Both the position numbers and the translations under genes were made by a program. From the IMG/VR virus record IMGVR_UViG_2541047956_000006: a DNA stretch of 37,744 nucleotides; one strand, 5' to 3'. The notes below the pieces were generated by a model, which was not told the DNA's origin, did no database searches, and was given only the letters and a program-made list of their open reading frames with translations. This DNA is from a virus (lineage: Duplodnaviria > Heunggongvirae > Uroviricota > Caudoviricetes). Shown one piece after another: positions 1 to 37,744 of the stretch; position 1 is the stretch's first letter, and the number at the start of each line of letters is the position of its first letter.

Positions 1-33
1 CGCACCAAACAGCAACGTCAGATGTTGTGCCAG
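1..33 (-). other. Host flank; continuation of the host membrane-protein ORF interrupted by the prophage
   Basis: Joining 1..33 to 37217..37744 (prophage and one TSD copy removed) gives a continuous minus-strand frame ...[18 protein letters not shown]. Confidence 0.6.
29..33. repeat. Target-site duplication, left copy (GCCAG)
   Basis: GCCAG immediately precedes the prophage left end TGTATTGATTCACTTG at 34; identical pentamer follows the right end. Confidence 0.85.
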
Positions 34-210
34 TGTATTGATTCACTTGAAGTACGAAAAAAACCGGGAGGACATTGGATTATTCGGGATTTGGCGGGAT
101 TAGATTTAGTGGGGCTTGCAAGCCAGTAGGACAGATTTTAGCCGTTACATCTTGAAACGCGAAAGATTGTTGGAAACAGCTTTTGATTCATTAAAGACAC
201 GAAAAGCAAT
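34..210 (+). promoter_or_regulatory. Left end (attL) with MuA end-binding repeats L1-L3
   Basis: Repeated CGAAA(A) motifs at 54..60, 158..165 and 197..207, matching the Mu end-repeat consensus as I recall it. Confidence 0.7.
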
Positions 211-372
211 TACTTCACGCATCATTTCAAGTACAGCTTCAAAAATGCTTCAAAAGCGGTAACAACCAGGCTTTCAGCAAGTGATGTGTGTCAAAAACAA
301 TCATCACTGTTTGGGTATCTTACATATGTAATTACCTGGAGTGAAGTTTATGTCTTAGCTATTACCTGGTTG

Positions 373-897
373 TTATACAGCTTTCTTTACATCGTTTTCT
401 CTTACAGGGAAATTATGTTCTTTGCCTTCATACTGAGACAAAATCTCTCTTACTTTTTCCGGTGGTAATGCTTGAAGAGTTTGCAGGGTTTTCTGTTGCT
501 CCACAGTAATCCCTAATGCCTCTAATGCCTTATCTTTACTGACAATTGTAGGCATAAGTCCTTTAATCCCTGCTACACGAATGATCTCCACAGCTGCGGC
601 CTGCTCATCTGGTGTTAAAAAGCTCATTGCATAAATTAGCCTCTCATCAACTGTATGGGCGATTGATGTATGCACTGGTTTATCAGAAAGTGAGGCACCT
701 TTAATGGCCCTGCGTGTTTCTTCTGGCAGACTGTTGATGTGATACTCATAAGCGACACCTTTCCCACCGTGACGCTGACGTTTTACCCAATCTTCCGCCA
801 CAGCTTTCCTGGTAATGTTAGTCGCCAACTTTGGTACACCAGGCATCCCTTCCAGCTCTTTCGCATTAAACCATTCTTTGATTTCAAAAGACATCAT
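373..897 (-). CDS. c: Repressor c (Mu/D108 family)
   Basis: 174 aa, minus strand at the left end, divergent from ner/A; N-terminus ([25 protein letters not shown]) is visibly homologous to the N-terminus of the transposase at 1312. Confidence 0.9.
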   Translation of the reverse strand: MMSFEIKEWFNAKELEGMPGVPKLATNITRKAVAEDWVKRQRHGGKGVAYEYHINSLPEETRRAIKGASLSDKPVHTSIAHTVDERLIYAMSFLTPDEQAAAVEIIRVAGIKGLMPTIVSKDKALEALGITVEQQKTLQTLQALPPEKVREILSQYEGKEHNFPVRENDVKKAV

Positions 898-1082
898 TTA
901 AAATCCTAGTGATTTCAATAGAGACAAAATAAATTCATATAAAAATCATGCCGTTATATGAAATCATGGTAAATCCTCTCAAATCCCTATTGATTTGAGA
1001 GTGATTCCACACTACATTGCACGATATGCCGTGAGCTACTTTATAGCGTAGCTCACGGGGGAATCTGAAAGGATTACATGAA
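898..1082. promoter_or_regulatory. Early operator/promoter region between c and ner; contains an 11-bp inverted repeat, candidate Ner operator
   Basis: Divergent intergenic region; perfect inverted repeat CCGTGAGCTAC (1029..1039) / GTAGCTCACGG (1048..1058) with 8-bp spacer, 25 bp upstream of ner. Confidence 0.6.
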
Positions 1083-1304
1083 ATGCATATGAATAAAAGA
1101 ACTAACCGCCAAGATTGGCACAGAGCTGACATCGTTGCAGAGCTACGAAAACGCAATATGTCACTAGCTGAATTGGGAAGATCTAATCATCTTTCGTCTT
1201 CAACATTGAAAAATGCTTTGGATAAGAGATATCCGAAAGCGGAGAAAATCATTGCAGATGCACTGGGAATGACACCGCAAGATATTTGGCCGTCTCGATA
1301 CTAG
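1083..1304 (+). CDS. ner: Ner, early transcription regulator (not the Mu-proper sequence; D108-like)
   Basis: 73 aa; contains the DWHRADI ... IWPSRY motifs of Ner proteins; position immediately upstream of A. Start may be 1083 or 1089. Confidence 0.9.
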
Positions 1305-1311
1305 GTGCGCT

Positions 1312-3300
1312 ATGAAAGAATGGTATACAGCAAAAGAGTTGCTCGGTTTGGCAGGTTTACCAAAGCAAGCCACTAACATTACACGTAAGGCACAAAGAGA
1401 AGGCTGGGAGTTCAGGCAGGTTGCAGGGACTAAAGGTGTATCATTTGAATTCAATATCAAATCATTCCCTGTCGCATTACGTGCTGAAATTCTGTTGCAA
1501 CAAGGGAGAATTGAAACAAGTCAGGGGTATTTTGAAATCGCCCGCCCCACGCTGGAAGCCCATGATTATGATCGTGAGGCACTGTGGAGCAAATGGGATA
1601 ACGCCAGCGATTCCCAGCGCAGACTTGCTGAAAAATGGTTGCCTGCGGTTCAGGCTGCAGACGAAATGCTGAACCAGGGGATTTCAACAAAAACGGCTTT
1701 TGCGACCGTTGCAGGGCATTACCAGGTCAGCGCATCCACTTTGCGGGACAAGTATTACCAGGTACAGAAGTTTGCGAAGCCTGACTGGGCGGCTGCGCTT
1801 GTTGATGGACGTGGTGCATCCCGTCGCAACGTTCACAAAAGTGAATTTGACGAGGATGCCTGGCAGTTTCTGATTGCAGATTATCTGCGACCGGAAAAGC
1901 CCGCCTTCCGCAAATGTTATGAGCGTCTGGAACTGGCAGCCCGCGAGCATGGCTGGAGTATTCCCTCCCGTGCCACGGCCTTTCGCCGGATTCAGCAACT
2001 GGACGAGGCAATGGTTGTTGCCTGTCGTGAAGGTGAACATGCACTGATGCATCTGATACCGGCACAGCAGCGAACTGTGGAACACCTGGACGCCATGCAG
2101 TGGATCAACGGCGACGGTTATCTGCATAACGTCTTTGTACGCTGGTTTAACGGTGATGTGATCCGCCCGAAAACATGGTTCTGGCAGGATGTGAAAACCC
2201 GAAAAATTCTGGGCTGGCGCTGCGATGTAAGCGAGAACATCGACTCAATTCGCCTCTCGTTTATGGATGTGGTGACACGCTACGGCATCCCGGAGGATTT
2301 TCACATCACCATTGATAACACCCGTGGTGCAGCGAATAAATGGCTGACGGGGGGCGCGCCCAATCGTTACCGCTTTAAGGTAAAAGAGGACGATCCAAAG
2401 GGACTGTTTTTACTGATGGGCGCGAAAATGCACTGGACAAGCGTTGTTGCCGGTAAAGGCTGGGGCCAGGCAAAACCTGTTGAACGTGCTTTCGGTGTTG
2501 GTGGGCTTGAGGAATACGTTGATAAGCATCCGGCACTGGCTGGCGCATATACGGGGCCAAATCCGCAGGCAAAACCTGATAACTATGGCGACCGCGCTGT
2601 TGATGCAGAGCTGTTTCTGAAAACCCTTGCCGAAGGTGTGGCGATGTTCAATGCCAGAACAGGCCGTGAAACAGAAATGTGCGGAGGCAAACTTTCGTTT
2701 GATGACGTTTTTGAGCGTGAATACGCCAGAACGATTGTGCGTAAGCCTACCGAAGAGCAAAAACGGATGCTGTTACTGCCTGCCGAGGCGGTGAACGTTT
2801 CACGTAAAGGCGAGTTCGCGCTTAAAGTTGGCGGCTCCCTTAAAGGTGCGAAAAACGTTTATTACAACATGGCGTTAATGAATGCCGGAGTGAAAAAAGT
2901 TGTGGTCAGATTTGATCCACAGCAGTTACACAGCACGGTTTATTGCTACACCCTGGACGGTCGGTTTATCTGTGAAGCGGAATGTCTGGCACCTGTTGCG
3001 TTTAATGATGCTGCGGCAGGCCGTGAATATCGCCGCCGCCAGAAACAACTGAAATCTGCGACGAAAGCAGCGATTAAGGCACAAAAACAAATGGATGCAC
3101 TGGAAGTGGCAGAGCTGCTGCCGCAGATAGCCGAACCTGAAGCACCAGAATCACGAATTGTCGGCATTTTCCGGCCTTCCGGTAATACGGAACGGGTGAA
3201 GAATCAGGAGCGTGATGATGAATACGAAACTGAGCGTGATGAATATCTGAATCATTCGCTGGATATTCTGGAACAGAACAGACGTAAAAAAGCCATTTAA
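1312..3300 (+). CDS. A: DDE transposase MuA
   Basis: 662 aa; from about residue 75 to the C-terminus (…[16 protein letters not shown]) matches Mu A as I recall it; N-terminal ~70 aa differ. Confidence 0.97.
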
Positions 3301-3338
3301 TTAACGTTTAAACAAAATTTAATTACGAGGTTATTCAG

Positions 3339-4277
3339 ATGAATATTTCCGATATTCGCGCAGGACTGCGCACGCTTGTAGAAAATGAAGAAACCACCTT
3401 TAAACAAATTGCTCTTGAGAGCGGACTTTCTACCGGAACTATCAGTAGTTTTATCAATGATAAGTACAACGGGGATAACGAGCGTGTTTCACAAATGCTG
3501 CAACGCTGGCTGGAAAAATATCATGCAGTTGCAGAATTACCTGAACCGCCCCGCTTTGTGGAAACGCAGACGGTAAAACAAATCTGGACAAGTATGCGTT
3601 TTGCCAGCCTGACTGAAAGTATTGCTGTTGTATGTGGCAATCCTGGTGTGGGCAAAACCGAAGCGGCCCGTGAATATCGCCGCACCAATAACAATGTCTG
3701 GATGATCACCATTACGCCATCCTGTGCCAGCGTTCTGGAATGTCTTACTGAACTGGCGTTTGAGCTGGGAATGAATGACGCACCACGCCGTAAAGGGCCG
3801 CTCTCTCGCGCCCTGCGACGTCGCCTTGAAGGTACACAGGGGCTGGTTATCATCGACGAAGCTGATCATCTTGGTGCCGAAGTTCTGGAAGAACTCCGCC
3901 TGTTACAGGAATCAACCCGTATTGGCCTTGTACTGATGGGAAATCACCGGGTTTATTCAAATATGACGGGGGGTAACAGAACGGTTGAATTTGCCCGTCT
4001 GTTTTCCCGTATTGCAAAGCGCACTGCAATTAATAAAACCAAAAAAGCCGATGTAAAAGCTATTGCGGATGCCTGGCAGATTAACGGCGAAAATGAACTG
4101 GAGTTATTACAGCAGATTGCGCAGAAACCAGGTGCGCTTCGCATTCTGAATCATTCACTTCGCCTTGCCGCCATGACGGCTCACGGTAAAGGTGAGCGTG
4201 TTAACGAAGATTATCTGCGTCAGGCTTTCCGTGAATTAGACCTGGACGTTGATATTTCAACGCTGCTGCGTAATTAA
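3339..4277 (+). CDS. B: MuB ATP-dependent target DNA activator
   Basis: 312 aa; Walker A GNPGVGKT, Walker B VIIDEADHL; position directly after A. Confidence 0.95.
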   Translation: MNISDIRAGLRTLVENEETTFKQIALESGLSTGTISSFINDKYNGDNERVSQMLQRWLEKYHAVAELPEPPRFVETQTVKQIWTSMRFASLTESIAVVCGNPGVGKTEAAREYRRTNNNVWMITITPSCASVLECLTELAFELGMNDAPRRKGPLSRALRRRLEGTQGLVIIDEADHLGAEVLEELRLLQESTRIGLVLMGNHRVYSNMTGGNRTVEFARLFSRIAKRTAINKTKKADVKAIADAWQINGENELELLQQIAQKPGALRILNHSLRLAAMTAHGKGERVNEDYLRQAFRELDLDVDISTLLRN

Positions 4278-4292
4278 GAAGGAGAAGAAATT

Positions 4293-4520
4293 ATGATGGC
4301 CCGAAATATAAAAATGGCAACGGATGCGCAGAACTGGTTACAGGCGCGCGGGAGTCATGTAAATGAATCATATCTCGGCGTGGCGCGTCCGATTCTTGAA
4401 ATCACTTACCCACCGGTGGAACTGGTAAAAAACGCGGTCAGAATTATGGAGCATAAGTCCGGGGTGGCCCGTTCTGTATGGACGGCCCGTCTTAATGGTT
4501 GCCAGATTATCTGGAGATAA
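4293..4520 (+). CDS. kil: Kil (host killing/cell-division inhibition protein)
   Basis: 75 aa ORF immediately after B with RBS GAAGGAGAAG upstream; matches Mu Kil position and size. Confidence 0.8.
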
Positions 4521-4522
4521 CG

Positions 4523-4753
4523 ATGTGTATTAAAGCTGAAAAATATATTGAATGGGTTAAACACTGTCAGTGCCACGGGGTGCCGCTGACGACATATAAA
4601 TGCCCCGGATGCGGTGAACAGATTATGACGCAATGCTCACACGAAAAGGAAATTCGGGATTCCCTGACATGTTGTCCGTGGTGCAGCGCAGTTTTCTTTA
4701 AGCAGGTAAAAGGCGCGAAGGTAAAAGCCAGCGCAGTTATTCAGAATCAATAA
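4523..4753 (+). CDS. Cys-rich small early protein, zinc-ribbon-like
   Basis: 76 aa from ATG 4523 (RBS GGAGATAACG); CQC, CPGC and CCPWC motifs. Track ORF starts at 4499 but that overlaps kil. Confidence 0.6.
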   Translation: MCIKAEKYIEWVKHCQCHGVPLTTYKCPGCGEQIMTQCSHEKEIRDSLTCCPWCSAVFFKQVKGAKVKASAVIQNQ

Positions 4754-4764
4754 GGAGAAATAAA

Positions 4765-5028
4765 ATGGCAAAGGTAATTATTGAAATTAAAAATACAGTA
4801 TCTGGAATTAAAGGACGGAATTTGCGCACCAGCATTGCGGTGGACGGTAGTGCGGAACTGGACGGTGATGAGGGGACACTTGCTGGCATGGTGGCGTTAC
4901 TGGTGCTTAATAAAAGCCAGAAAATAATTAATGAGTCAGCCCATGAAGCTATTGAGATTTTGAAAAACGATGGTGTCATCACAGGTGGCAGTGTCACTGA
5001 AATGGCTGTTGAAAAAACATGTCACTGA
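4765..5028 (+). CDS. Hypothetical early protein
   Basis: 87 aa ORF with RBS AAGGAGAAATAAA upstream; tightly packed in early operon. Confidence 0.6.
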   Translation: MAKVIIEIKNTVSGIKGRNLRTSIAVDGSAELDGDEGTLAGMVALLVLNKSQKIINESAHEAIEILKNDGVITGGSVTEMAVEKTCH

Positions 5029-5462
5029 AAGGAACGCTGACAATGAACGTCAAAATCCGAAATGAAATTCAGGCATTAATCCGAATTCAGGAACGCAATA
5101 ACAACGGTGGTGAATTACGCGAGTTTATTTGCACCCGGAAAGTTGATGATTGTGGTGAAAAGACGTACCTGATCGCTTTCGACCATTACAGCATCTGTGC
5201 GCGTTATTGCGGCGAAAGCATATCCCGCGCCATTGCATTTGGCGGTGCGTTCAACGTGGATTTATGGGAGTACGTCATGGACCGGGAATACATCTGCGCA
5301 TCAGACCCTGAAGCCCGTGAAATGTGGCAGCGTATCTGGCGCGATTACCGGTTAATGGCAAAAGGCTGGGCGCGCTGCTGTTATTCCTCACTTGCCCTGA
5401 AAGCGGTTCAGTTATCGCTGCGGCATATTCCGGCATCACTGCGCGAGCCTCTGCTGTACTGA
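5019..5462 (+). CDS. Hypothetical early protein (start 5019 or 5043)
   Basis: 147 aa ORF; alternative ATG at 5043 has a better-spaced AGGA. Confidence 0.6.
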   Translation: MSLKGTLTMNVKIRNEIQALIRIQERNNNGGELREFICTRKVDDCGEKTYLIAFDHYSICARYCGESISRAIAFGGAFNVDLWEYVMDREYICASDPEAREMWQRIWRDYRLMAKGWARCCYSSLALKAVQLSLRHIPASLREPLLY

Positions 5463-5762
5463 ATGGTGGCTGACATGAAGTGTAATCGTAAGCGCTGGTC
5501 ACGCGAAGACCGGGAATTTATCGAAGCCAACGTCGGGAAAATGACCGTTGAAGAAATGGCGGAAAAACTGAAAGTCGCCACAACCGCCCTCCGGGCACAT
5601 GCCAGAAGGCACGGAATATCATTGTGTGTATACCGAATCAGTGAACACGACAAATATTTATGTCGTGAACTTTATAAAGAAGGACTGGATATTCATGTCA
5701 TTGCCCGAAAGATGGAATTAAGCAATCGAGCTGTATCCAGCATTGTATACAGCGGATATTAA
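5463..5762 (+). CDS. Small early protein with helix-turn-helix-like segment
   Basis: 99 aa; KRWSREDREFIEANVGKMTVEEMAEKLKV resembles a Myb/sigma-region-4 type HTH. Start 5463 or 5475. Confidence 0.6.
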   Translation: MVADMKCNRKRWSREDREFIEANVGKMTVEEMAEKLKVATTALRAHARRHGISLCVYRISEHDKYLCRELYKEGLDIHVIARKMELSNRAVSSIVYSGY

Positions 5763-5781
5763 TTAACAGGAGCTTTAATTT

Positions 5782-6306
5782 ATGGCTAAACCAGCAAAAC
5801 GTATCAAAAGTGCCGCAGCGGCTTATGTGCCACAAAACCGCGATGCGGTGATTACTGATATTAAACGCATCGGGGATTTACAGCGCGAAGCATCACGTCT
5901 GGAAACGGAAATGAATGATGCCATCGCGGAAATTACGGAGAAATTTGCGGCCCGGATTGCACCGATTAAAACCGATATTGAAACCCTTTCAAAAGGCGTT
6001 CAGGGATGGTGTGAAGCGAACCGCGACGAACTGACGAACGGCGGCAAAGTGAAAACGGCAAATCTTGTCACCGGTGATGTATCGTGGCGGGTCCGTCCAC
6101 CATCAGTAAGTATTCGTGGTATGGATGCAGTGATGGAAACGCTGGAGCGTCTTGGCCTGCAACGCTTTATTCGCACGAAGCAGGAAATCAACAAGGAAGC
6201 GATTTTACTGGAACCGAAAGCGGTCGCAGGTGTTGCCGGAATTACGGTTAAATCGGGAATTGAAGATTTTTCCATTATTCCATTTGAACAGGAAGCCGGT
6301 ATTTAA
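5782..6306 (+). CDS. gam: Gam, host-nuclease inhibitor / DNA-end binding protein
   Basis: 174 aa; sequence (MAKPAKRIKSAAAAYVPQNRDAV...) matches Mu Gam as I recall it. Confidence 0.93.
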   Translation: MAKPAKRIKSAAAAYVPQNRDAVITDIKRIGDLQREASRLETEMNDAIAEITEKFAARIAPIKTDIETLSKGVQGWCEANRDELTNGGKVKTANLVTGDVSWRVRPPSVSIRGMDAVMETLERLGLQRFIRTKQEINKEAILLEPKAVAGVAGITVKSGIEDFSIIPFEQEAGI

Positions 6307-6404
6307 TACCACCATTAATATTTAATTAATTCACATTCTTTTAATTATGGCGCGATGCGTCAGGGGATTGCTCGCGCCTGAAACAGATTACTGAGGAATA
6401 AAAC

Positions 6405-6935
6405 ATGGTTGATGCAAAAATTCTGAATGGTGTCAGCACATTATTACGGGCTTACGGACGCCTGACCTGCGGAGTTCTGGCTGAAAAAATGAAGATGCCT
6501 CCCTCATCAATGGTGTATTTCCTGCGTGATGCGGTTGATGCCGGCGTTCTCACCGAATGCAACGGATTTTATGACGTTCCGCGCCCGCGTCCGACGCCGC
6601 CTGTAAGACGAAACGCAACTGAGCAGCCTGCTGTTGATGATGCGGTGTGGTGCAACTGGCGTCGCTCATTACCCTGGGTGGAAGGTAATACCATCCCCGC
6701 GCTGGCAAAAGAGTTTGCGACGGGCGTGCTGACCTGTGAATCCGTTCACATCGTTGCAGAAGTGGACAACAGAATGTGCGAACAGGGAATGCCACGTTTT
6801 GTGATGGCTTATATCGATATCCGGCTGGGGCGGTTTATTTGCAGTTCAAGCGCCTGGAATATCACCGACCATGTACTGCGTTATCTCATTCTTGATTGTT
6901 CTCCGGCTCCCGTAGCGGTGCAGGAGGTGGCGTGA
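6405..6935 (+). CDS. Hypothetical early protein
   Basis: 176 aa ORF with RBS GAGGAATAAAAC; stop overlaps next start (ATGA at 6933..6937). Confidence 0.6.
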   Translation: MVDAKILNGVSTLLRAYGRLTCGVLAEKMKMPPSSMVYFLRDAVDAGVLTECNGFYDVPRPRPTPPVRRNATEQPAVDDAVWCNWRRSLPWVEGNTIPALAKEFATGVLTCESVHIVAEVDNRMCEQGMPRFVMAYIDIRLGRFICSSSAWNITDHVLRYLILDCSPAPVAVQEVA

Positions 6936-7465
6936 TGTTTTTTAAAACGTCAAATCCCGCAGCACTGCTGGCGTGGGACCAGTTTATGGCGGACTGTCTG
7001 AAACTACGCGAAGAAGCCCGCCATCTTGATAAGGTTCTGGGTTGTGGTTGCCGGTCAGTATTCAGCACAGGTATTGGTGGGCGTTATTTTCATGGTGTGA
7101 ACTTTCCGGGGAATGAGCGCCCTTTCTCGCGGGAGCTGTGGACCGTACAACGGCCCGCATCAGGTAACAGTTGCAGGCCAAGAACATCGCGCATTCCTGC
7201 ACATCTGCGGGAGCAGTCAAAAGAGCTGGCGAAAATATGGCAGGAGAATATTCCGGTCACTTATGCCCGTACTGACGCTCTCTTACCCGCACTGGGACTG
7301 GATTTCAGCGCAACAATATTCGGCCCGCTCCGGTGGTTCCGTGTTGGTGATGTGATTTACGTCATGACAGGGATGACTCCCGCACAGGGCCGCATGACTG
7401 AAATCCTTTCTGACGAATTTATCCGGGCGCAAAAACAGGCGGAGGTAAACAATGGAAAACAATGA
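6935..7465 (+). CDS. Hypothetical early protein
   Basis: 176 aa from ATG 6935, preceded by CAGGAGG; track ORF from 6896 overlaps the upstream gene. Confidence 0.6.
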   Translation: MFFKTSNPAALLAWDQFMADCLKLREEARHLDKVLGCGCRSVFSTGIGGRYFHGVNFPGNERPFSRELWTVQRPASGNSCRPRTSRIPAHLREQSKELAKIWQENIPVTYARTDALLPALGLDFSATIFGPLRWFRVGDVIYVMTGMTPAQGRMTEILSDEFIRAQKQAEVNNGKQ

Positions 7466-7634
7466 AACATCGTATTCGTGGCTGGGGAAATTTACCACGG
7501 TGAAACAGGAATGCCCGACCTGCGGTAATGAATCCCCTGAATATCTGAAAGAGTGCCCTCATTGTGGCGGGCAGAAATGTAACCACTGCGATATGGGCGA
7601 TGACACGGCGTGCATGAATTGTGAAGGTGAGTGA
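7452..7634 (+). CDS. Small zinc-finger-like protein (four CxxC pairs)
   Basis: 60 aa with CPTC, CPHC, CNHC, CMNC. Confidence 0.55.
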   Translation: MENNETSYSWLGKFTTVKQECPTCGNESPEYLKECPHCGGQKCNHCDMGDDTACMNCEGE

Positions 7635-7635
7635 C

Positions 7636-7944
7636 ATGAATAATGGTGTATTTTCAAAATCAGAAGAGCTTGCCGCCCTGCTGATTGCCGGTGGTTTGCC
7701 GAAAAAAGAAGTGCATGACTTTGTGAATTTTGTATATGAGCCGTCTCATGAAAAAGCTATTGATGAGGTCATGGCGTACCGGTTTGGCATTATTGCTGAG
7801 TCACTGAGTCCTCACTGGATTATTGAAAATCTCCGCGCTATTGCTGATGGCAACGATAAATCAGCAGCCGTTGCTGCACTGGATGTGTTACGGCAAATGA
7901 GTCTGAAATTTTATCCTGAATTTATTCTGAGGGCCGCAAAATGA
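7636..7944 (+). CDS. Hypothetical early protein
   Basis: 102 aa from ATG 7636 with RBS AAGGTGAG; track start 7621 is a GTG overlapping the previous gene. Confidence 0.6.
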   Translation: MNNGVFSKSEELAALLIAGGLPKKEVHDFVNFVYEPSHEKAIDEVMAYRFGIIAESLSPHWIIENLRAIADGNDKSAAVAALDVLRQMSLKFYPEFILRAAK

Positions 7945-8243
7945 ACAATGAAGATAAATTTACTCCCCTTAATATTGATAACGTCATGGCTGAAAAAGGG
8001 ATGCTGGAACGTGTTCGCGCTATCGTTGAATATGGTATTAAGCATAATCTCACCGCCAGAGAAGTCCGTGACATTATCAACCGCGAAATGAATCGTCTGG
8101 AAACAGTAGTGGCACTGCAAAATGAAACAGCCCGCGAGGAGTACATCCGCCGCAGGCTGGGGTTATCAGACCAGGATATTGTTACTGACGCTCATGTGTT
8201 TGAGGCTTTTGAGATCCGTCAGCATCTGGGTCTAACGAACTGA
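7941..8243 (+). CDS. Hypothetical early protein
   Basis: 100 aa; start overlaps previous stop (ATGA). Confidence 0.6.
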   Translation: MNNEDKFTPLNIDNVMAEKGMLERVRAIVEYGIKHNLTAREVRDIINREMNRLETVVALQNETAREEYIRRRLGLSDQDIVTDAHVFEAFEIRQHLGLTN

Positions 8244-8448
8244 TAATGTCTTCCATGATCTTTGACAGTTGCATGTTTTCGCGGCGGCTTGTTCTTATTG
8301 CAGGCGCATCTTTTAAAATCTCTGCTGAAGAGCTGAAAATGGCCTGGCCCTCTTCTGCGGTGATGATCGCCTTCTTCACCAGAAGGCGCACCAGTGCTGA
8401 TGCAATCGCATAACCTGCAACATCATAAGGTTGTACATTATTTTCCAT
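8182..8448 (-). CDS. Candidate antisense small protein (88 aa), unknown function
   Basis: Fills the largest plus-strand coding gap in the prophage (8244..8517); ATG at 8448 preceded by GAGAGGA with ~4-nt spacing; balanced, helix-like composition. Confidence 0.35.
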   Translation of the reverse strand: MENNVQPYDVAGYAIASALVRLLVKKAIITAEEGQAIFSSSAEILKDAPAIRTSRRENMQLSKIMEDIISSLDPDADGSQKPQTHERQ

Positions 8449-8517
8449 AAAATCCTCTCTGATTGATGTGTAAATTCAGGCGGTGTTGCAGCACCGCCTC
8501 TTTCCGGAGGTACGATC

Positions 8518-9455: not shown

Positions 9456-9460
9456 ACAGT

Positions 9461-9486
9461 AAAGCCGGTTAATCCGGCTTTTTTTA
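9461..9486 (+). terminator. Intrinsic terminator ending the early operon
   Basis: Stem AAAGCCGG / CCGGCTTT with 5-nt loop followed by a T run, immediately after mor. Confidence 0.75.
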
Positions 9487-9537
9487 CGCCCTCAATATTC
9501 TGTTGTGACGATAAAACGTTCATGACAGGAGGGCAAC

Positions 9538-10421: not shown

Positions 10422-10433
10422 CCGGGGGAAAAT

Positions 10434-10856: not shown

Positions 10857-10880
10857 CCGGCATCCTGCCGGTTATTTCCT
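10854..10880 (+). terminator. Hairpin at end of C, candidate middle-operon terminator
   Basis: 9-bp stem TAACCGGCA / TGCCGGTTA with 3-nt loop followed by TTTCCT. Confidence 0.55.
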
Positions 10881-10947
10881 GTCACCATAATCCCGCACCT
10901 GCCACCTGATTTTTTAGACTGCCATCAGAGCATTTTTTCAGGGAAGC

Positions 10948-28187: not shown

Positions 28188-29319
28188 TACCGTCACGCTG
28201 CGAACGGATGGCAGGCTTTTTACCGGCTGGACGTCAGTCTCTGTCACCCGCTCCATTGAATCCGTAGCCGGATATTTTGAGCTGGGGGTGAACGTGCCAC
28301 CGGGCACGGATTTATCCGGGCTGGCACCGGGGAAGGCGTTCACGCTGGAAATCGACGGGCAGATTGTCTGCACCGGTTATATCGATTCGCGGCGACGCCA
28401 GATGACCGCTGACAGCATGAAAATCACTATCGCCGGACGTGACAAAACGGCTGACCTGATTGACTGTGCTGCCGTTTACAGTGGCGGACAGTGGAAAAAC
28501 CGCACACTGGAGCAGATTGCGCGTGACCTGTGCGCTCCTTATGGCGTTACCGTTCGCTGGGAGCTTTCCGATAAGGAAAGTTCGGCAGCTTTTCCCGGCT
28601 TCACGCTGGACCATTCAGAAACCGTTTATGAGGCGCTGGTGCGTGCCTCCCGCGCACGCGGTGTACTGATGACCAGCAATGCCGCAGGAGAGCTGGTATT
28701 CAGCCGGGCTGCCAGCACAGCAACTGATGAGCTGGTTCTCGGAGAAAATCTGCTGACACTGGATTTTGAGGAAGACTTCCGCGACCGGTTCAGCGAATAC
28801 ACCGTCAAGGGGTATGCCCGCGCAAACGGTGCTGAGGGTGATGATATTGATGCGAAAAGTATCGTCTCCCGGAAAGGGACCGCCACTGACAGTGATGTGA
28901 CCCGTTACAGACCGATGATCATCATTGCCGACAGCAAAATTACGGCGAAGGATGCACAGGCCCGCGCCCTGCGTGAGCAACGCCGCAGACTGGCAAAATC
29001 CATCACCTTTGAGGCAGAAATTGACGGATGGACACGCAAGGACGGGCAACTCTGGTTGCCGAACCTGCTGGTCACTATTGATGCCTCGAAATATGCCATC
29101 AAAACCACAGAATTACTGGTCAGCAAAGTCACCCTGATACTGAATGACCAGGACGGGCTGAAAACCCGCGTCAGCCTTGCACCACGCGAAGGCTTTCTGG
29201 TGCCGGTTGAAAGCGACCGTAAAAACAGGAAAAGCGGCGACAGTAACGGCGGTATTGATGCGCTGGTTGAAGATTATTATCGCAGACACCCGGAGAAAAC
29301 GCCGCCGTGGAAAGAGTAA
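28180..29319 (+). CDS. Q: Baseplate hub protein Q
   Basis: 379 aa; Mu gene order. Confidence 0.85.
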
Positions 29320-29900
29320 ATGATTTCGCCATGAACCGCCTGCTGACACCGCTGATGCGTCGTGTGCGCCTGATGCTTGCGCGCGCTGTTGTTAACGTGA
29401 TTAACGACGGGCGAAAGGTTCAGAACCTGCAGGTCGGTCTGCTGGATGATGAGGAATCCGATGAAGTGGAGCGCCTGCAAAATTACGGACATTTCAGCGT
29501 TCCCCTGCCGGGCGCAGAGGCGCTGATTGCCTGTGTGGGTGCACAACGTGATCAGGGGATCGCCGTTGTGGTGGAAGACCGCCGCTACCGCCCGACAAAT
29601 CTTGAACCGGGTGATGCAGGCATTTACCACCATGAGGGGCATCGTATCCGGCTGACAAAGGACGGACGCTGCATCATTACCTGTAAAACGGTTGAGGTTT
29701 ACGCTGATGAAAGTATGACCGTTGACACACCCAGAACCACGTTTACCGGCGACGTTGAGATCCAGAAAGGTCTGGGCGTTAAAGGTAAAAGCCAGTTCGA
29801 CAGCAATATTACTGCCCCGGATGCCATCATCAATGGCAAATCGACGGATAAGCATATCCACCGTGGCGACAGCGGCGGAACCACGGGGCCAATGCAATGA
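29307..29900 (+). CDS. V: Baseplate spike protein V
   Basis: 197 aa; Mu gene order. Confidence 0.82.
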   Translation: MERVNDFAMNRLLTPLMRRVRLMLARAVVNVINDGRKVQNLQVGLLDDEESDEVERLQNYGHFSVPLPGAEALIACVGAQRDQGIAVVVEDRRYRPTNLEPGDAGIYHHEGHRIRLTKDGRCIITCKTVEVYADESMTVDTPRTTFTGDVEIQKGLGVKGKSQFDSNITAPDAIINGKSTDKHIHRGDSGGTTGPMQ

Positions 29901-30334
29901 CCGATTTAGCCATTATCTGGACGAACGGACGCGGCGATATTGCACAGGATGGCATTGACATGCTGACCGACGACAGCCTGACAACCGATGTGACAATCTC
30001 CCTGTTTACAGACCGGCGCGCGCTGGATTCTGACACGCTGCCGGATGGTTCAGATGATCGCCGTGGATGGTGGGGTGACAGTTACCGCGACCGCCCCATC
30101 GGTTCGCGGTTGTGGCTGTTATCACGTGAAAAAGCCACACCGGATACGCTGGAACGCGCCAGAGGGTATGCCGAAGAGGCGCTGGAATGGCTGAAAACAG
30201 CGGGCCGGGTAAGTGCGATTAACGTCAGAGCGGAACAGTTACATCAGGGCTGGTTATACCTCTACATTGCACTGACATTACCGGATGGTTCCGTTATTCC
30301 TTATGAGTTTAAAGCAGCATTTAACGGGGTTTAA
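29897..30334 (+). CDS. W: Baseplate protein W
   Basis: 145 aa; Mu gene order. Confidence 0.82.
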   Translation: MTDLAIIWTNGRGDIAQDGIDMLTDDSLTTDVTISLFTDRRALDSDTLPDGSDDRRGWWGDSYRDRPIGSRLWLLSREKATPDTLERARGYAEEALEWLKTAGRVSAINVRAEQLHQGWLYLYIALTLPDGSVIPYEFKAAFNGV

Positions 30335-31417
30335 ATGGCTTATTCACCACCGACATTATCATCGCTGATTGCCCGTACAGAACAGAATATTGAACAGCGC
30401 CTGCCGGGTAGCTGGCCTCAGGCCCGTGAAAAAACGCTGAGTGCCATTGCTTATGCTCAGGCGGGCCTTGCTGCCGGTTGTCACGAGCATATTTCATGGG
30501 TTGGACGGCAGATTATCCCGTCGACAGCAGATGAAGATGAGTTGCTGGAGCACTGCCGGTTCTGGGGCGTGCGCCGCAAACAGGCGACAGCCGCCAGCGG
30601 CCCGCTGACTGTCACCACATCGGCAGCGACCACCATTCCTGCCGGTACACGCTGGCAGCGTGCTGATGGTGTGGTTTACAGCCTGGCTGATGCCATTGTG
30701 ATTGACCGTGCAGGAACGACGGAAATTACCGTTACCGCACTGGCTGCCGGTGAGGCAGGAAATACCGGTGAGAATACCCTTTTAACGTTGATCACCCCGG
30801 TTGCCTGTGTTGTTTCCGATGCCATCACTGTAAAAGGGTTTTCCGGTGGGGCTGATATTGAGAGTGCAGCGGAGCTGCTGTCACGGCTGGAATATCGTGT
30901 CCAGTATCCTCCGTTCGGCGGTAATCAGTTTGATTATGTTCGCTGGGCGCGTGAAGTCAGCGGCGTTACCCGTGCCTGGTGTTTTCCGACATGGAAAGGC
31001 GGTGGCACAGTCGGGGTGACGTTTGTTATGGATAACCGGAGCAATATTTTTCCACAACCGGCAGACGTGGAACGCGTGGCGGATTATATCGCCGGTCATA
31101 CTGACCCGATCACTGGTCTGATTGTCGGACAGCCTGATGGTGTAAATGTCACGGTATTTGCGGCAAAGGCAAAGCCGGTAAATCCACGGATTTATATATC
31201 ACCGAAGACAGCCGAACTGAAACAGGCTATTACTCACGCCATTAATACCATGTTTTTTAATGAGGTGACGCCGGGCGGCGCACTTGCCCCCTCCCGTATT
31301 ATCCGTGCGGTGGCAGGTGTTACCGGTCTGGATGATTTTGAAGTGCGTTTCCCGACAGAGATCCAGCGTTCGGAGAATACGGAACTGTTAACACCGGGGA
31401 CAATTGAATGGCTGTAA
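30335..31417 (+). CDS. R: Baseplate J-like protein R
   Basis: 360 aa; Mu gene order. Confidence 0.85.
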   Translation: MAYSPPTLSSLIARTEQNIEQRLPGSWPQAREKTLSAIAYAQAGLAAGCHEHISWVGRQIIPSTADEDELLEHCRFWGVRRKQATAASGPLTVTTSAATTIPAGTRWQRADGVVYSLADAIVIDRAGTTEITVTALAAGEAGNTGENTLLTLITPVACVVSDAITVKGFSGGADIESAAELLSRLEYRVQYPPFGGNQFDYVRWAREVSGVTRAWCFPTWKGGGTVGVTFVMDNRSNIFPQPADVERVADYIAGHTDPITGLIVGQPDGVNVTVFAAKAKPVNPRIYISPKTAELKQAITHAINTMFFNEVTPGGALAPSRIIRAVAGVTGLDDFEVRFPTEIQRSENTELLTPGTIEWL

Positions 31418-31950
31418 CACCCTATCAGACGGCCTTTCTGCAATTACTGCCGTCAGGGCTTGCCTGGAATAAAAGCCCCGACAGCAAATTATCTGCGCTG
31501 GCGCAGGCCATCAGCGACGTGATTGCCACTGCGGCGGATGATGCGCGGCAAATGCTGCGGGAGCGTTTCCCGTCCACATCCCGCTGGTATCTGGGGGAGT
31601 GGGAATCATTTCTGGGGTTGCCTGACTGTACCAGCGAAAACGGCACCCTGTCCGAACGCCAGCGGGCTGCCGCGAATAAAATGCGTATGACCGGCAATCT
31701 GAGTCGGCGCTTTTATGAATGGCTGGCTGCGCAGTACGGTTTTACCGTCAGGCTGACGGATTCCACAGAAGGCCAGTGGGTTACGCAGGTCAATATTTAC
31801 GGTATTAAAAATTATCGCAACGCAACGGTGCTGGATAATGTTCTGACGCCGTTACGTGTTTATGAATCGGGTGCGCTGGAATGTTTACTGGAGAAATATA
31901 AACCCGCGCATCAGATTTATAAATTTGTTTACCATGACGGAGATAACTAA
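31408..31950 (+). CDS. Tail/baseplate protein preceding tail fibre
   Basis: 180 aa; position before S. Confidence 0.75.
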   Translation: MAVTPYQTAFLQLLPSGLAWNKSPDSKLSALAQAISDVIATAADDARQMLRERFPSTSRWYLGEWESFLGLPDCTSENGTLSERQRAAANKMRMTGNLSRRFYEWLAAQYGFTVRLTDSTEGQWVTQVNIYGIKNYRNATVLDNVLTPLRVYESGALECLLEKYKPAHQIYKFVYHDGDN

Positions 31951-33473
31951 TGTTTTATATTGATAACGACAGCGGCGTAACCGTCATGCCGCCCGTATCC
32001 GCCCAGCGTAGTGCTATCGTTCGCTGGTTTTCAGAAGGTGACGGGAATAATGTTATCACATGGCCCGGCATGGACTGGTTTAATATTGTGCAGGCGGAGT
32101 TATTAAACACGCTGGAAGAAGCCGGTATTCAACCGGATAAAACAAAATTAAACCAGCTTGCACTGTCCATTAAAGCCATTATGAGCAATAACGCGCTGCT
32201 GATAAAAAATAACCTCAGCGAAATTAAAACTGCCGGGGCATCAGCACAGCGTACAGCACGTGAAAATCTGGATATCTATGATGCCAGCCTGAACAAAAAA
32301 GGACTCGTTCAGCTAACCAGTGCCACTGACAGCCCCAGTGAAACGCTGGCAGCCACCGCAAAAGCGGTGAAAATTGCGATGGATAATGCCAATGCCCGTC
32401 TGGCAAAAGACCGGAACGGAGCAGATATTCCCAATAAGCCGCTGTTTATCCAAAACCTCGGTTTACAGGAAACGGTAAATCAGGCTTCTGGCGCATTACA
32501 GAAAAACCAGAACGGCGCAGATATTCCCGATAAAAAACTATTCCTGCGTAATATCGGCACAACAAATTCAACAACCATGTCTTTTAGTGGTGGTGCTGGA
32601 TGGTTCAAACTGGCAACTGTAACAATGCCACAAGCCAGTTCCGTGGTTTACATAAGCCTGATTGGTGGCGCAGGGTTTAACGTTGGCTCCCCGCATCAAG
32701 CAGGCATCTCTGAGCTGGTTCTGCGTGCCGGAAATGGAAATCCAAAAGGTATTACTGGTGCATTATGGCGACGGACCTCGGTTGGATTTACTAATTTTGC
32801 ATGGGTGAATACATCCGGTGATACCTATGATGTTTATGTTGAAATAGGTAATTACGCCACAGGTGTTAATATTCAGTGGGATTATACCAGTAACGCCAGC
32901 GTAACGATTCATACATCACCAACTTATACAGCGAATAAACCAACAGGCCTGACAGATGGAACTGTATATGTAATTTACAGTTCGCACATTAAACCGACAG
33001 CTGCTGAGGTTGGGGCGTTGTCATTATCTGGCGGTCAATTGAATGGTGCACTGGGCATCGGAACATCCAGTGCTCTTGGTGGTAACTCGATTGTTTTGGG
33101 TGATAATGACACGGGATTTAAACAAAATGGCGACGGGTATCTGGATGTTTATGCTAATAACGTCCATGTTATGCGCTTTGTCTCCGGCAGTATTCAAAGT
33201 AATAAAACCATAAATATTACAGGTCGTGTTAATCCCTCAGATTACGGTAACTTTGATTCCCGTTATGTGAAAGATGTTCGACTTGGTTCACAGCAATATT
33301 ATGGCGTGAAAAACTGGCAAACATGGAATTTCCAGTGCCCGTCAGGTCATGTATTGACTGGTATTAATGTTCAGGATACAGGGTCCAATTCTGCCGATAA
33401 TATAGCGGGCGTTTATTACAGACCCGTTCAAAAGTATATAAATGGCACCTGGTATAATGTAGCGAGCGTTTAA
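31950..33473 (+). CDS. S: Tail fibre protein S (constant part plus currently expressed variable part)
   Basis: 507 aa; the left gix inverted repeat lies inside the gene at 32446..32494, marking the constant/variable junction. Confidence 0.9.
32446..32494. repeat. Left inverted repeat of G segment containing gixL (26-mer at 32446..32471)
   Basis: TTATCCAAAACCTCGGTTTACAGGAA...; reverse complement present at 35483..35531 with 2 mismatches over 49 bp. Confidence 0.85.
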
Positions 33474-33474
33474 T

Positions 33475-34002
33475 ATGATGCACTTAAAGAACATAAAAGC
33501 GGGTAACGCTAAAACACTGGAACAGTATGAGTTAACAAAGAAACACGGAGTTATCTGGCTTTACTCTGAGGACGGAAAAAACTGGTATGAGGAAGTGAAA
33601 AACTTTCAGCCAGACACCATAAAGATTGTTTACGATGAAAATAATATTATTGTCGCCATCACCAAAGATGCCTCCACGCTTAACCCTGAAGGTTTTAGCG
33701 TCGTTGAGGTTCCCGATATAACAACCAATCGTCGGGCCGATGATTCCGGTAAGTGGATGTTTAAGGACGGAGCTGTGGTTAAACGGATTTATACAGCTGA
33801 CGAACAGCAACAACAGGCCGAATCACAAAAGGCCGCGTTACTTTCCGAAGCAGAAAGCGTTATTCAGCCACTGGAGCGCGCTGTCAGGCTGAATATGGCG
33901 ACGGATGAGGAACGCGCACGACTGGAATCATGGGAACGCTACAGTGTTCTGGTCAGCCGTGTGGATACGGCAAATCCTGAATGGCCACAAAAGCCTGAAT
34001 AA
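33475..34002 (+). CDS. U: Tail fibre assembly protein U
   Basis: 175 aa; N-terminal ~120 aa clearly paralogous to the minus-strand ORF at 34031..34564. Confidence 0.88.
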
Positions 34003-34030
34003 AAATTAAGGCCCGATATCGGGCCTTCTC

Positions 34031-34564
34031 TCATTCTGGTTGTTCGGGAAACGTTACTGGCAGGCTGGAAGTGTCTGTAGATTCGACTTTCTGCGCAAAG
34101 AGCATCCACTCTGTTAATTTTTGTTTATTCTCGTCGGAAATGATGCCCAGCCGTAGCTGTGAGTCCCATAGCTGGGTTTTATCCCTGACAAGTTGCAACA
34201 GGCTTTGCTTTTCATTCTCTGCCTGCTGCCTCTGTTCCTCCTCGGTATAAGTTCGCTTTATCACTACGCCATCTTTGAACATCCATTTACCCGAAATATC
34301 AGCACGGCGATTTGCTGTAATATCAGGAACCTCAACGACGCTTGCGCCTTCTGGATTAATTGCTGAAACATCCTTTTCAATACAAATAATAACGCCGTTG
34401 TGGTCATAGACCATTTTCAACGTATCAGGCTGAAAGTTCTTTTGTTCCTCATACCAGTTTTTCCCATCCTCTGTATAAAGCCATTTGATGTTAAATTGTT
34501 TCGTTAGCTGGTATTGCTCTTTTGTTTTAGGGTTGCCAGCAGTAATATTTTTTAAGTGCATCAT
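34031..34564 (-). CDS. Alternative tail fibre assembly protein U'
   Basis: 177 aa, paralog of U, inside the G segment in inverted orientation. Confidence 0.85.
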   Translation of the reverse strand: MMHLKNITAGNPKTKEQYQLTKQFNIKWLYTEDGKNWYEEQKNFQPDTLKMVYDHNGVIICIEKDVSAINPEGASVVEVPDITANRRADISGKWMFKDGVVIKRTYTEEEQRQQAENEKQSLLQLVRDKTQLWDSQLRLGIISDENKQKLTEWMLFAQKVESTDTSSLPVTFPEQPE

Positions 34565-34566
34565 AA

Positions 34567-35518
34567 TTAAATACTCCCCGCGTTATACCACGTTCCATTA
34601 ATGCAATACTGAATTGGCCTTGCCTGAGTTGTATCAATTAATTCATCACGGTTTCCGTTAACTGAACCCGTAACGACATAACCTGACCTGTCAGACCAGC
34701 CGGGACCATTCCATGTCTGAACAGATGACAGACCGCCAAGGCGAATACCTGTAATAAACCTTGAGTTACATTCTGCCTGCGTGTATGCACCAACATCTCC
34801 CGCAGAGGGTTTGCGGGTTGTGGTGTAAAACTCTGACCAGTCAGCTTCAAAGCCATAACCATCACGCGCTGAACGATAAAAGATACCGCCATTTCTGTAA
34901 TTCACGCGGAACTGTACAGCAGGGCAGCTCCCCGTATTCATATTGAAGTGGAGGATTAATGTCGATGCGCCACCAATATTTGCGTTATAGACCCCGCTAT
35001 TCCAGTTCCAGCCAACAGCTTTATCATTTCCGACAGTGCTTCCTGTTTGCCCTAAAGCAAATGCAGACTGCTGGTTTTTCGTGTTGTAGTCTCGTCGCCA
35101 GCCAGGAGCATAAGCATCACCATGATTAATATAGGTGAATTGAGCGTTAGTAATTCCGCCACCGCTGGAAGTGCTCGGGGTGGTTACACGGATGGTCATG
35201 GCTCCTTTATTACCCATAACCTCAATAACGCAACCTGCAAGATGAATAGTTCCACAGCCAGTATCGGTAATAATTTTATTATTGCCGTATGACCATGAAC
35301 ATTTGCACATCCAGTATGGGTGATTGAATGCCCCTTGAGAATCCAGCCATTCAATCAATTGTGCCGTCGTCCAGTTTCCTGCACCTGTGCTAATAGCACC
35401 ATGAAAAGAGCGGCAAGCACCTATTGTTTGCGTAAATTTATCTTTGTTTGGAATATCTGCGCCATTCTGGTTTTTCTGCAACGCACCAGAAGCCTGATTT
35501 ACCGTTTCCTGTAAACCG
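34567..35518 (-). CDS. Alternative tail fibre variable C-terminal part S' (no own start; fused to the constant part of S after inversion)
   Basis: Open frame running into the right gix repeat; its first codons ([11 protein letters not shown]) repeat the sequence at the constant/variable junction of S. Track start at 35481 is a TTG. Confidence 0.8.
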
Positions 35519-35531
35519 AGGTTTTAGATAA
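35483..35531. repeat. Right inverted repeat of G segment containing gixR (26-mer at 35506..35531)
   Basis: Reverse complement of 32446..32494 with 2 mismatches. Confidence 0.85.
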
Positions 35532-35585
35532 TGGCTGTTTCCGGCCTGCATGGCATGATTTGCGCTTTTAAACGGGAGATCCAGA

Positions 35586-36167
35586 GTGCTGATTGGCTAT
35601 GTAAGGGTATCAACAAATGACCAGAATACAGACCTGCAACGAAACGCTCTTGTTTGTGCAGGATGTGAACAAATATTTGAAGATAAATTAAGCGGAACAA
35701 GGACAGACAGACCTGGATTAAAACGCGCTTTAAAGCGTCTTCAAAAAGGTGACACACTGGTTGTCTGGAAACTGGATCGCCTCGGGCGAAGCATGAAACA
35801 TTTGATTTCTCTCGTAGGGGAATTACGAGAGCGAGGGATTAATTTTCGCAGTCTTACTGACAGTATTGATACGTCATCTCCAATGGGGCGTTTTTTCTTC
35901 CACGTTATGGGTGCCCTGGCTGAGATGGAACGAGAACTAATCATCGAGAGAACGATGGCTGGACTTGCTGCTGCCAGAAATAAAGGCCGTATCGGTGGGC
36001 GACCACCTAAACTAACCAAAGCGGAATGGGAGCAGGCCGGGCGTTTATTAGCACAAGGAATCCCCCGCAAGCAGGTCGCATTGATCTACGATGTGGCCCT
36101 GTCAACGCTGTATAAAAAACACCCCGCCAAACGAACGCATATAGAAAACGACGATCGAATCAATTGA
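35586..36167 (+). CDS. gin: Gin DNA invertase (serine recombinase)
   Basis: 193 aa from GTG 35586; catalytic N-terminus LIGYVRVSTNDQ; matches Mu Gin as I recall it. Confidence 0.97.
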   Translation: MLIGYVRVSTNDQNTDLQRNALVCAGCEQIFEDKLSGTRTDRPGLKRALKRLQKGDTLVVWKLDRLGRSMKHLISLVGELRERGINFRSLTDSIDTSSPMGRFFFHVMGALAEMERELIIERTMAGLAAARNKGRIGGRPPKLTKAEWEQAGRLLAQGIPRKQVALIYDVALSTLYKKHPAKRTHIENDDRIN

Positions 36168-36261
36168 ATCGATCGGTAATACAGATCGATTATGCCCCAA
36201 TAACCACACTCAACCCACGATGTTTTTTAAGATAGTGGCGAATTGATGCAAAGGAGGTGAG
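36153..36261 (+). promoter_or_regulatory. mom promoter regulatory region with three clustered GATC (Dam) sites
   Basis: GATC at 36153, 36171 and 36184 within 35 bp, spanning the gin stop and upstream of com. Confidence 0.7.
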
Positions 36262-36450
36262 ATGAAATCAATTCGCTGTAAAAACTGCAACAAACTGTTA
36301 TTTAAGGCGGATTCCTTTGATCACATTGAAATCAGGTGTCCGCGTTGCAAACGTCACATCATAATGCTGAATGCCTGCGAGCATCCCACGGAGAAACATT
36401 GTGGGAAAAGAGAAAAAATCACGCATTCTGACGAAACCGTGCGTTATTGA
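36262..36450 (+). CDS. com: Com, zinc-finger translational activator of mom
   Basis: 62 aa with CKNC...CPRC; strong RBS AGGAGGTGAG; overlaps start of mom. Confidence 0.9.
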
Positions 36451-37096
36451 GTATGAAGGCCAGATTGTTGGCTATGGTTCAAAGGAACTGCGCGTTGAAA
36501 CCATATCCTGCTGGCTGGCCCGCACAATTATTCAGACAAAGCACTATTCCCGCCGTTTTGTGAATAACTCTTACCTCCACCTGGGAGTATTCAGCGGACG
36601 CGATCTGGTTGGCGTTCTCCAGTGGGGATATGCCCTTAACCCCAACTCAGGTCGTCGTGTCGTGCTTGAAACGGATAACCGGGGCTATATGGAGTTGAAT
36701 CGCATGTGGCTACACGACGACATGCCCCGCAACTCTGAATCACGGGCCATCAGCTACGCGCTGAAAGTTATCAGATTACTGTATCCGTCAGTGGAGTGGG
36801 TTCAGTCATTTGCTGACGAACGCTGCGGACGCGCAGGCGTTGTGTATCAGGCGTCGAATTTTGATTTTATTGGCAGCCATGAAAGCACGTTCTACGAGCT
36901 GGATGGTGAGTGGTATCACGAGATAACGATGAACGCGATTAAGCGGGGTGGACAACGAGGCGTGTATTTACGGGCTAATAAAGAGCGTGCCGTGGCGCAC
37001 AAATTTAATCAGTATCGCTACATCAGATTCCTGAACAAGCGAGCAAGGAAGCGGCTAAATACCAAACTATTCAGGGTTCAGCCATACCCTAAGTGA
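36371..37096 (+). CDS. mom: Mom DNA modification protein (start uncertain: ATG 36371 or GTG 36401)
   Basis: Last gene before right end; overlaps com in another frame. Confidence 0.85.
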
Positions 37097-37116
37097 TCCC
37101 CATGTAATGAATAAAA

Positions 37117-37140
37117 AGCAGTAATTAATACTGCTGTTTC
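37117..37140 (+). terminator. Hairpin after mom, candidate terminator
   Basis: 7-bp stem AGCAGTA / TACTGCT with 5-nt loop followed by GTTTC. Confidence 0.55.
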
Positions 37141-37211
37141 ATTTGAAGCGCGAAAGCTAAAGTTTTCGCATTTATCGTGAAACGCTTTCGCGTTTTTCGT
37201 GCGCCGCTTCA
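37141..37211 (+). promoter_or_regulatory. Right end (attR) with MuA end-binding repeats R1-R3
   Basis: GCGAAAG/CGAAAA-type repeats in both orientations; terminal ...GCGCCGCTTCA. Confidence 0.8.
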
Positions 37212-37744
37212 GCCAGCGCGTCGTCAAACACATCCTGACGGTTGGCGTATTCTTTCATTAACGAGAGATCGTTAAGCGTGCCGGAGTACAGCAACCACAG
37301 CGGAACAATGGCAATCTGCATATGCAACAACCAGCGCCACAGCGGATGCGTGGAGATTCGGCGGATGGCATCGCTACAGGCCAGCAGTGCCAGCGCCGCA
37401 GCCAGCCAGAAACCACTTCCGAGGCAGGTACGCGCCAGCGCACTACCATTTTGCGCCAGTTGTGTCGCCGCCTTTCCAGCTCCCCACACCAGCAATACGA
37501 AGACGAATTGCGCCAGAATGAGTGCAAAAATGCTGCCTTTTTTAGCGGGAATAAAACAGGCTGTCAGCCAGGCGCAACCAACGCCCACCAGCATCCAGAG
37601 AGTTTGCGGCCACAGCTGCCAGAGATGACGCCCCTCACCCGAAACTAAACGATTAGGTGCGTAACTGATAAACGGCAGCGCCGCTGCGATTGCCGTCAGC
37701 AACAGCAGCAGCGCCAGAACAGGATTAATACGGAAATAAGTCAC
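37172..37744 (-). CDS. Host integral membrane protein, 5' portion; last 13 codons come from the prophage right end (gene split by insertion). 5' end runs off the window
   Basis: Minus-strand ORF with several hydrophobic helices; frame continues across the reconstructed empty site into 33..1. Confidence 0.7.
37212..37216. repeat. Target-site duplication, right copy (GCCAG)
   Basis: Identical to 29..33. Confidence 0.85.

Follow-up and report, generated by a model that had tools for sequence, protein, structure and literature searches.

A Mu-group prophage in Escherichia coli yehY with exact ends, a five-base-pair duplication and a D108-left, Mu-right mosaic genome

The stretch of DNA analyzed here, 37,744 nucleotides recorded as IMG/VR virus record IMGVR_UViG_2541047956_000006 and referred to below as the window, contains a Mu/D108-type transposable prophage of 37,178 bp (34..37211, plus strand) that opens with 5'-TG and closes with CA-3'. 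We conclude that this element is almost certainly a full-length temperate phage of the Mu group (genus Muvirus) that integrated by transposition into the Escherichia coli gene yehY. A sequence-only reading of the window had proposed exact TG/CA ends and an identical GCCAG pentamer on each side; this observation is confirmed and is correct to the base.

Exact ends and the empty site in yehY

The element termini lie at 34-35 (TG) and 37210-37211 (CA), and the two copies of GCCAG, at 29..33 and 37212..37216, form a direct repeat of exactly 5 bp: the bases that precede the copies differ (T versus A), as do the bases that follow them (T versus C). Alignments to Mu (NC_000929), D108 (GQ357916) and SfMu (NC_027382), made with megablast and blastn, all begin at base 34 of the window, which is base 1 of the phage records, and 37211, the final base of the Mu and SfMu records, is where the alignments to these two phages stop, so the ends align with known Mu-group termini as the earlier reading had expected. 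At the left end, 54 nt agree fully with both Mu and D108; at the right end, the identity extends over 80 nt with Mu and 90 nt with SfMu. Because the ends are placed by these phage alignments and not by the repeat, the chance of finding an identical flanking pentamer is about 1 in 1024. The target consensus of Mu is CYSRG, a property of MuA (PMC7350765), and GCCAG agrees with it at 4 of 5 positions on either strand. Relatives that inserted independently are flanked by other duplications, GCCGA in E. coli E24377A and GCCGT in E. coli JNEC-KY180 (NZ_AP045177.1), and all three pentamers fit the central YSR. The same left end occurs in about 40 complete E. coli genomes beside varied host genes (ssuA, nrdE, potE, pduA and others), and among the matches listed it starts at base 34 in most of these genomes.

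Prophages of the integrase type can also be bordered by short direct repeats, and GCCAG might in principle be the short core of an att site used by a site-specific integrase. We consider this barely conceivable. None of the element's open reading frames (ORFs) encodes an integrase, and the Gin invertase is the sole recombinase. Furthermore, close relatives reside at numerous unrelated loci, flanked in each case by another pentamer, and the ends bear MuA-binding sites as well as the TG/CA termini. We saw no sequence that contradicts a Mu-type insertion.

The expectation that an uninserted allele with a single GCCAG should exist, and that removal of the element and one pentamer restores the host frame, was borne out. 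Rejoining the flanks with one pentamer (1-33 and 37217-37744) yields 561 nt that match CFT073 yehY at 100%, with 0 mismatches and 0 gaps, and the host frame is open throughout. The 264 nt that span the junction are present as uninterrupted yehY in 5,424 of the 5,426 complete E. coli genomes and are 100% identical in CFT073, Nissle 1917, ABU 83972, ATCC 25922 and others. Retaining both pentamers produces a frameshift and a stop in the host frame, while removing both likewise leaves it free of stops. Absence of a stop after removal is a weak test, since a left flank of 28-33 nt has too little power to discriminate; the real test of insertion is the comparison with the empty allele, rather than the open frame.

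The yehY gene of CFT073 is 1,158 nt long and lies within osmF-yehY-yehX-yehW, and the target pentamer corresponds to its nt 529-533. In the window the distal side of the gene (1..33, minus strand) includes the left duplication copy and runs past the window edge. On the other side, a 190-amino-acid ORF (37172..37744, minus strand) consists of about 177 YehY codons followed by 13 codons from the Mu right end, placing the truncation of the YehY permease at approximately codon 177 of 385. The insertion would be expected to disable the OsmF-YehYXW glycine-betaine transporter, and because the 37-kb element is oriented against the operon it should also cut off expression of the downstream genes yehX and yehW.

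The exact YehY-phage fusion ORF is found on a 1.09-Mb contig of NCBI assembly GCA_000461715.1, with osmF, bglX, dld and pbpG as neighbors, and in a Logan assembly, where it was seen in several samples; each agrees with the window at 100% across the part they have in common. None of the roughly 40 complete E. coli genomes that share the left end carries the yehY insertion, and the only records of it are the draft assembly GCA_000461715.1 and Logan assemblies. Given a draft assembly as the source, and the wide use of Mu derivatives for mutagenesis, the junctions might be an assembly artifact, or the element a laboratory Mu or mini-Mu insertion instead of a natural lysogen. Either is very unlikely. 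The right junction is the same in the 1.09-Mb contig and in the independently built Logan assembly, which argues against an artifact. A laboratory Mu is hard to reconcile with the D108-type immunity, the GH108 gene and the different T allele and fiber tip described below, or with long stretches that are 100% identical to wild prophages; in addition, every ORF of the element can be assigned to a phage gene, and marker or cloning sequences are absent.

We also observed a related Mu-like prophage in the same yeh neighborhood, beside yehR, in a clone of E. coli isolates from humans (RIVM_C0xxxxx genomes); this is probably a coincidence.

Transposition genes and completeness of the element

We scanned the window for MuA-binding sites with a 17-mer consensus taken from the D108 record and found six in the end regions. 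At the left end, L1 (17-mer core at 44..60, plus strand; 11-27 bp from the end) has 0 mismatches to YMYNWRAARYRCGAAAR and occupies an equivalent position in Mu, D108 and SfMu, L2 (149..165, plus strand; 116-132 bp) is identical to D108 L2, and L3 (189..205, plus strand; 156-172 bp) is identical to D108 L3, which the D108 record annotates at 156-172. At the right end lie R1 (37185..37201, minus strand; 11-27 bp from the end), R2 (37163..37179, minus strand; 33-49 bp) and R3 (37140..37156, plus strand; 56-72 bp), the last inverted relative to R1 and R2. L1-L3 are spaced and R1-R3 contiguous. In the same scan, Mu and SfMu have sites at equal positions and in equal orientations, and those of D108 fall within 1 bp. 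Over the whole window the pattern matched 10 times compared to 5.3 expected, an enrichment that is not significant; the weight of this evidence lies in the positions of the six predicted end sites.

The early region at the left end is divergent, with c on the minus strand and ner, A and B on the plus strand, and includes matches to the Pfam families HTH_Tnp_Mu_1 and HTH_35. The repressor c (373..897, minus strand; PF02316) is of the D108 immunity type, identical to D108 c at 172 of 174 residues and about 30% identical to Mu c. Ner (1083..1304, plus strand) is identical to D108 Ner over all 73 residues, and the 662-residue transposase A (1312..3300, plus strand) matches D108 A at every position (662/662). 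Its DDE triad, D268/D335/E391, aligns with D269/D336/E392 of MuA. B (3339..4277, plus strand), the transposition ATPase and target-capture protein, is 99.7% identical to Mu B.

The remainder of the element follows the Mu plan. Counterparts of 53 of the 54 annotated Mu proteins are present in unchanged order, full-length and uninterrupted; outside the replaced immunity module and the T allele, these shared genes are 88-100% identical to Mu. Across about 90% of the element's length, DNA identity to the type members of the Mu group is 96-97%, with a collinear gene order. On the plus strand, the early genes are followed by the semi-essential early region with kil, gp6-gp9, gam and gp11-gp14 (4293..8243), then by gemA and the middle-promoter activator mor (8518..9455), the late-gene activator C (10434..10856; 99.3% identical to Mu C) and a lysis region (10948..12488) made up of lys (gp22), the spanin gp23, gp24 and gp25, a DUF2730 releasin homolog; the roles assigned to the lysis-region genes follow PMC9239132. 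Downstream, also on the plus strand, are the packaging and head genes gp27, gp28, gp29, gp30 and G (12772..18330), the head protease/scaffold gene I (18527..19609), the genes gp35-gp48 for head-tail joining, sheath, tube, tape measure, N and baseplate (20614..31950) and, near the right end, the DNA-modification genes com and mom (36262..37096), whose products are 100% (Com) and 99.2% (Mom) identical to those of Mu. The gyrase cut site annotated in the Mu record maps by sequence to about position 18350, within a homolog of the central strong gyrase site (18291..18411) that matches Mu 17820-17940 with 96.7% identity across 121 nt. Between gp13 and gp14 lies a 107-amino-acid ORF (7621-7944, plus strand; phrog_1988) that is common to SfMu, Yersinia phage vB_YpM_5 and E. 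coli prophages and absent from Mu and D108; it gave no Pfam match and no PADLOC match. An Rfam scan of the whole window returned no family at threshold.

All of the Mu-group features that we tested, namely the ends, the duplication, the MuA sites, A and B, c-ner, the gene order, the G segment and com-mom with the gyrase site, were found at the level of sequence, and the prophage is apparently intact. The earlier description of a complete Mu-type prophage stands in all its parts; "complete" is best read as 53 of 54 Mu genes intact by sequence.

An alternative is that the element is a cryptic, defective Mu-like remnant, unable to transpose or to form particles, in which case only the insertion scar would be informative. 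E. coli does harbor deleted Mu-like remnants, such as the one in E24377A, which retains 12.6 kb between intact ends and a 5-bp duplication, and activity cannot be read from a sequence. We judge this explanation unlikely in view of the 53 full-length shared genes and their close identity to Mu, the intact end sites, DDE triad, gix sites and both fiber sets, and a length of 37,178 bp compared to 36.7-37.2 kb in viable Mu, D108 and SfMu.

Several points set limits to the reading of a full-length Mu-group phage. The inducibility, plaque formation and transposition of the prophage are judged from the intactness of its genes, and intact ORFs are compatible with inactivating point mutations that do not truncate the product. 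One Mu gene, gp19, is absent; Mu is reported not to need it for lysis (PMC9239132). A polar effect on yehX and yehW is deduced from the direction of the operon. Finally, the major head protein T (19609..20547, plus strand) is a divergent allele, with 68.5% amino acid identity to Mu T, that sits beside a Mu-like protease/scaffold. Its neighbors on both sides resemble those of Mu (I, 96%; gp35, 100%), so that T looks like a clean single-gene capsid swap. The allele is identical to that of JNEC-KY180, and the occurrence of the same combination there is the sole indication that T and the scaffold would be compatible.

With a full-length Mu-group phage as the preferred reading, established Mu biology suggests how the prophage would have arisen and how it may behave. 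A MuA tetramer assembled on the end sites would have joined the 3'-OH CA ends of the infecting linear DNA to target positions 5 bp apart, with MuB capturing and delivering the target, and gap filling by host repair would have generated the GCCAG duplication. The D108-type repressor would hold the early promoter off and thereby maintain lysogeny; upon induction, replicative transposition would be followed by headful packaging from the left end.

Mosaic structure and relatives within Muvirus

The element had been described as Mu-type. Its place in the Mu group was upheld, and the description can now be refined: it is neither Mu nor D108 proper and, judged from a 500-nt identity map and blastn pieces, is best described as a natural, strain-level mosaic within Muvirus with a D108-type left part and a Mu/SfMu-type right part. 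From 34 to about 4800 the element is of the D108 type (98.7% identity), and the sequences of L1-L3 are identical to those of D108. Mu aligns weakly to window positions 34-393 (about 80%) and from there to 1500 not at all. The right end (37092-37211), by contrast, is of the Mu/SfMu type and lacks D108 gene 56. The departures from all three reference phages are the region of the GH108 gene (9504-10089), T and the tip of the tail fiber S.

Comparison with each relative supports this description. The element shares with D108 a collinear gene order and, beyond the left 4.8 kb, most of the late region at about 97% identity. However, at 37092 the D108 alignment is interrupted, to continue at only 82% for the final 86 nt, D108's own gene 56 is missing, and R2 and R3 are of the Mu type; moreover, gp7 is Mu-type, the GH108 gene replaces gp19, and T and the S tip differ. 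Thus the immunity/transposase module of D108 proper is present and its right end with gene 56 is not. With Mu, the element has in common the termini, all six MuA-site positions, identical R1-R3 and 96-97% identity from 1.5 kb to the right end, with Gin, Com and Mom at 99-100%. It differs from Mu in Ner (49% identity) and the N-terminal 80 residues of A (50%), as it does in c, in having the extra 107-amino-acid ORF, in the GH108 gene for gp19, in T and in an unrelated S tip. SfMu shares the 107-amino-acid ORF, a Mu-type right end (99% identity from 35.5 kb on) and a D108-like repressor, whereas its left 6 kb is only about 92% identical, gp36-37 differ, the GH108 gene is missing and the G segment in its record lies the other way round. 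Because the operator/enhancer region is bound by the N-terminal domain of A, it makes sense that a single D108-type module carries c, the operators, ner and the A N-terminus, whereas the end sites can be exchanged.

Bacterial and phage genomes hold further pieces of the mosaic. The JNEC-KY180 prophage matches the element at 100% between about 7.5 and 29 kb, a stretch that includes the GH108 gene and the T allele, but has a different immunity region and fiber tip and interrupts an S49 peptidase gene of a prophage. The deleted E24377A remnant is approximately 100% identical to the element over the left 3.5 kb, 29.5-31.5 kb and 35-37.2 kb. The E24377A prophage was considered as the closest full-length relative (its left 1.5 kb is 99.9% identical) and was rejected as a 12.6-kb deleted remnant. 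Mu-related phages that have been described include SfMu (PMC4406740) and the Mu-like Yersinia phages (PMC10434027); of the latter, vB_YpM_5 and vB_YpM_6 have an identical GH108 cassette and differ from the element in their immunity region and A N-terminus, which are of a third type. Relatives with at least 95% identity over the terminase-portal region occur in 44 of the 5,426 complete E. coli genomes.

A separate Mu-like prophage, in E. coli FDAARGOS_1059 (NZ_CP066032.1, 4018000-4057500), has this third-type immunity region and A N-terminus, like vB_YpM_5, and no match to window positions 34-3200. It is flanked by a fragment of a ycjP-like permease gene on one side and of an SDR oxidoreductase gene on the other, and these mismatched flanks suggest a Mu-mediated deletion or rearrangement.

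Tail fibers, the GH108 gene and significance

The invertible G segment is flanked by 89-nt inverted arms that hold 26-bp gix sites. In the present orientation the tail fiber gene S (31950..33473, plus strand; 507 amino acids) is constant to about 32458 and then enters its variable tip, and is followed by the fiber-assembly gene U (33475..34002, plus strand). U' and the variable part of S', the alternative set expressed after inversion of G, lie on the minus strand (34031..35544). The gixL site (32446..32471, plus strand) is identical to Mu gixL (TTATCCAAAACCTCGGTTTACAGGAA), and gixR (35506..35531, minus strand) has 1 mismatch to gixL and keeps the central TC. The invertase gene gin (35586..36167, plus strand) encodes a protein 99.5% identical to Mu Gin. 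We simulated inversion at the central TC dinucleotide and obtained an intact 486-amino-acid S' followed by a 177-amino-acid U', and the host-range switch is therefore predicted to be intact. In its outer half-site, gixR has a T in place of the C of gixL (TTATCTAAAACC), which would give TAA in the S frame; this triplet stays out of that frame because the crossover falls at the central TC.

Mu, D108 and SfMu all lack a counterpart of the receptor-binding tip of S (32528-33227, plus strand). The tip shares 94% identity with the alternative (S') fiber of vB_YpM_5 and vB_YpM_6, and P2-type fiber genes match its C-terminal half at 80%. This is typical shuffling of fiber cassettes.

The GH108 gene (9538..10098, plus strand) is the one feature outside textbook Mu biology. 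It is a cargo gene, the first ORF past the mor terminator, that takes the place of Mu gp19 and encodes a 186-amino-acid muramidase-like protein with GH108 and PG_binding_3 domains and an EGGY motif at residues 21-24. A simple hydropathy scan revealed no transmembrane or signal segment, and the ORF matched no defense model in a PADLOC scan. Relatives of the protein with solved structures include "secretion activator" proteins and TtsA-like muramidases. The gene is rare, occurring in 8 of the 5,426 complete E. coli genomes; in vB_YpM_5 and vB_YpM_6, whose copies have the same DNA sequence, it bears the annotation hypothetical, and the order gemA-mor-GH108-gp18 is conserved, with 72% protein identity, in a Klebsiella Mu-like phage.

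Studies of Mu report no holin and the use of an endolysin of the signal-anchor-release (SAR) type with a releasin, and list gp19 and gp20 as dispensable middle genes (PMC9239132). Since Mu is reported to lyse its host in this way, we tentatively propose, as a rather improbable idea, that the signal-less second muramidase might reach the cell wall by a holin-independent route, either through release dependent on the DUF2730 releasin or through TtsA-like remodeling of the wall. If true, the GH108 protein would add to this Mu lineage a new accessory step in lysis or development.

The element as a whole is of an already known kind with well-documented biology; each of its modules is present in annotated public records, and it raises no new question about transposition. 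Its value is mainly that of a clean, fully verifiable example, in which a base-exact insertion can be set against an available empty-site allele. For the host strain, which in its flank matches genomes such as CFT073, Nissle 1917 and their relatives, the insertion would amount to a knockout of OsmF-YehYXW. For the phage family, a natural mosaic of D108-left and Mu-right parts is one more instance of the exchange of modules within Muvirus; close relatives of Mu are uncommon among complete E. coli genomes.

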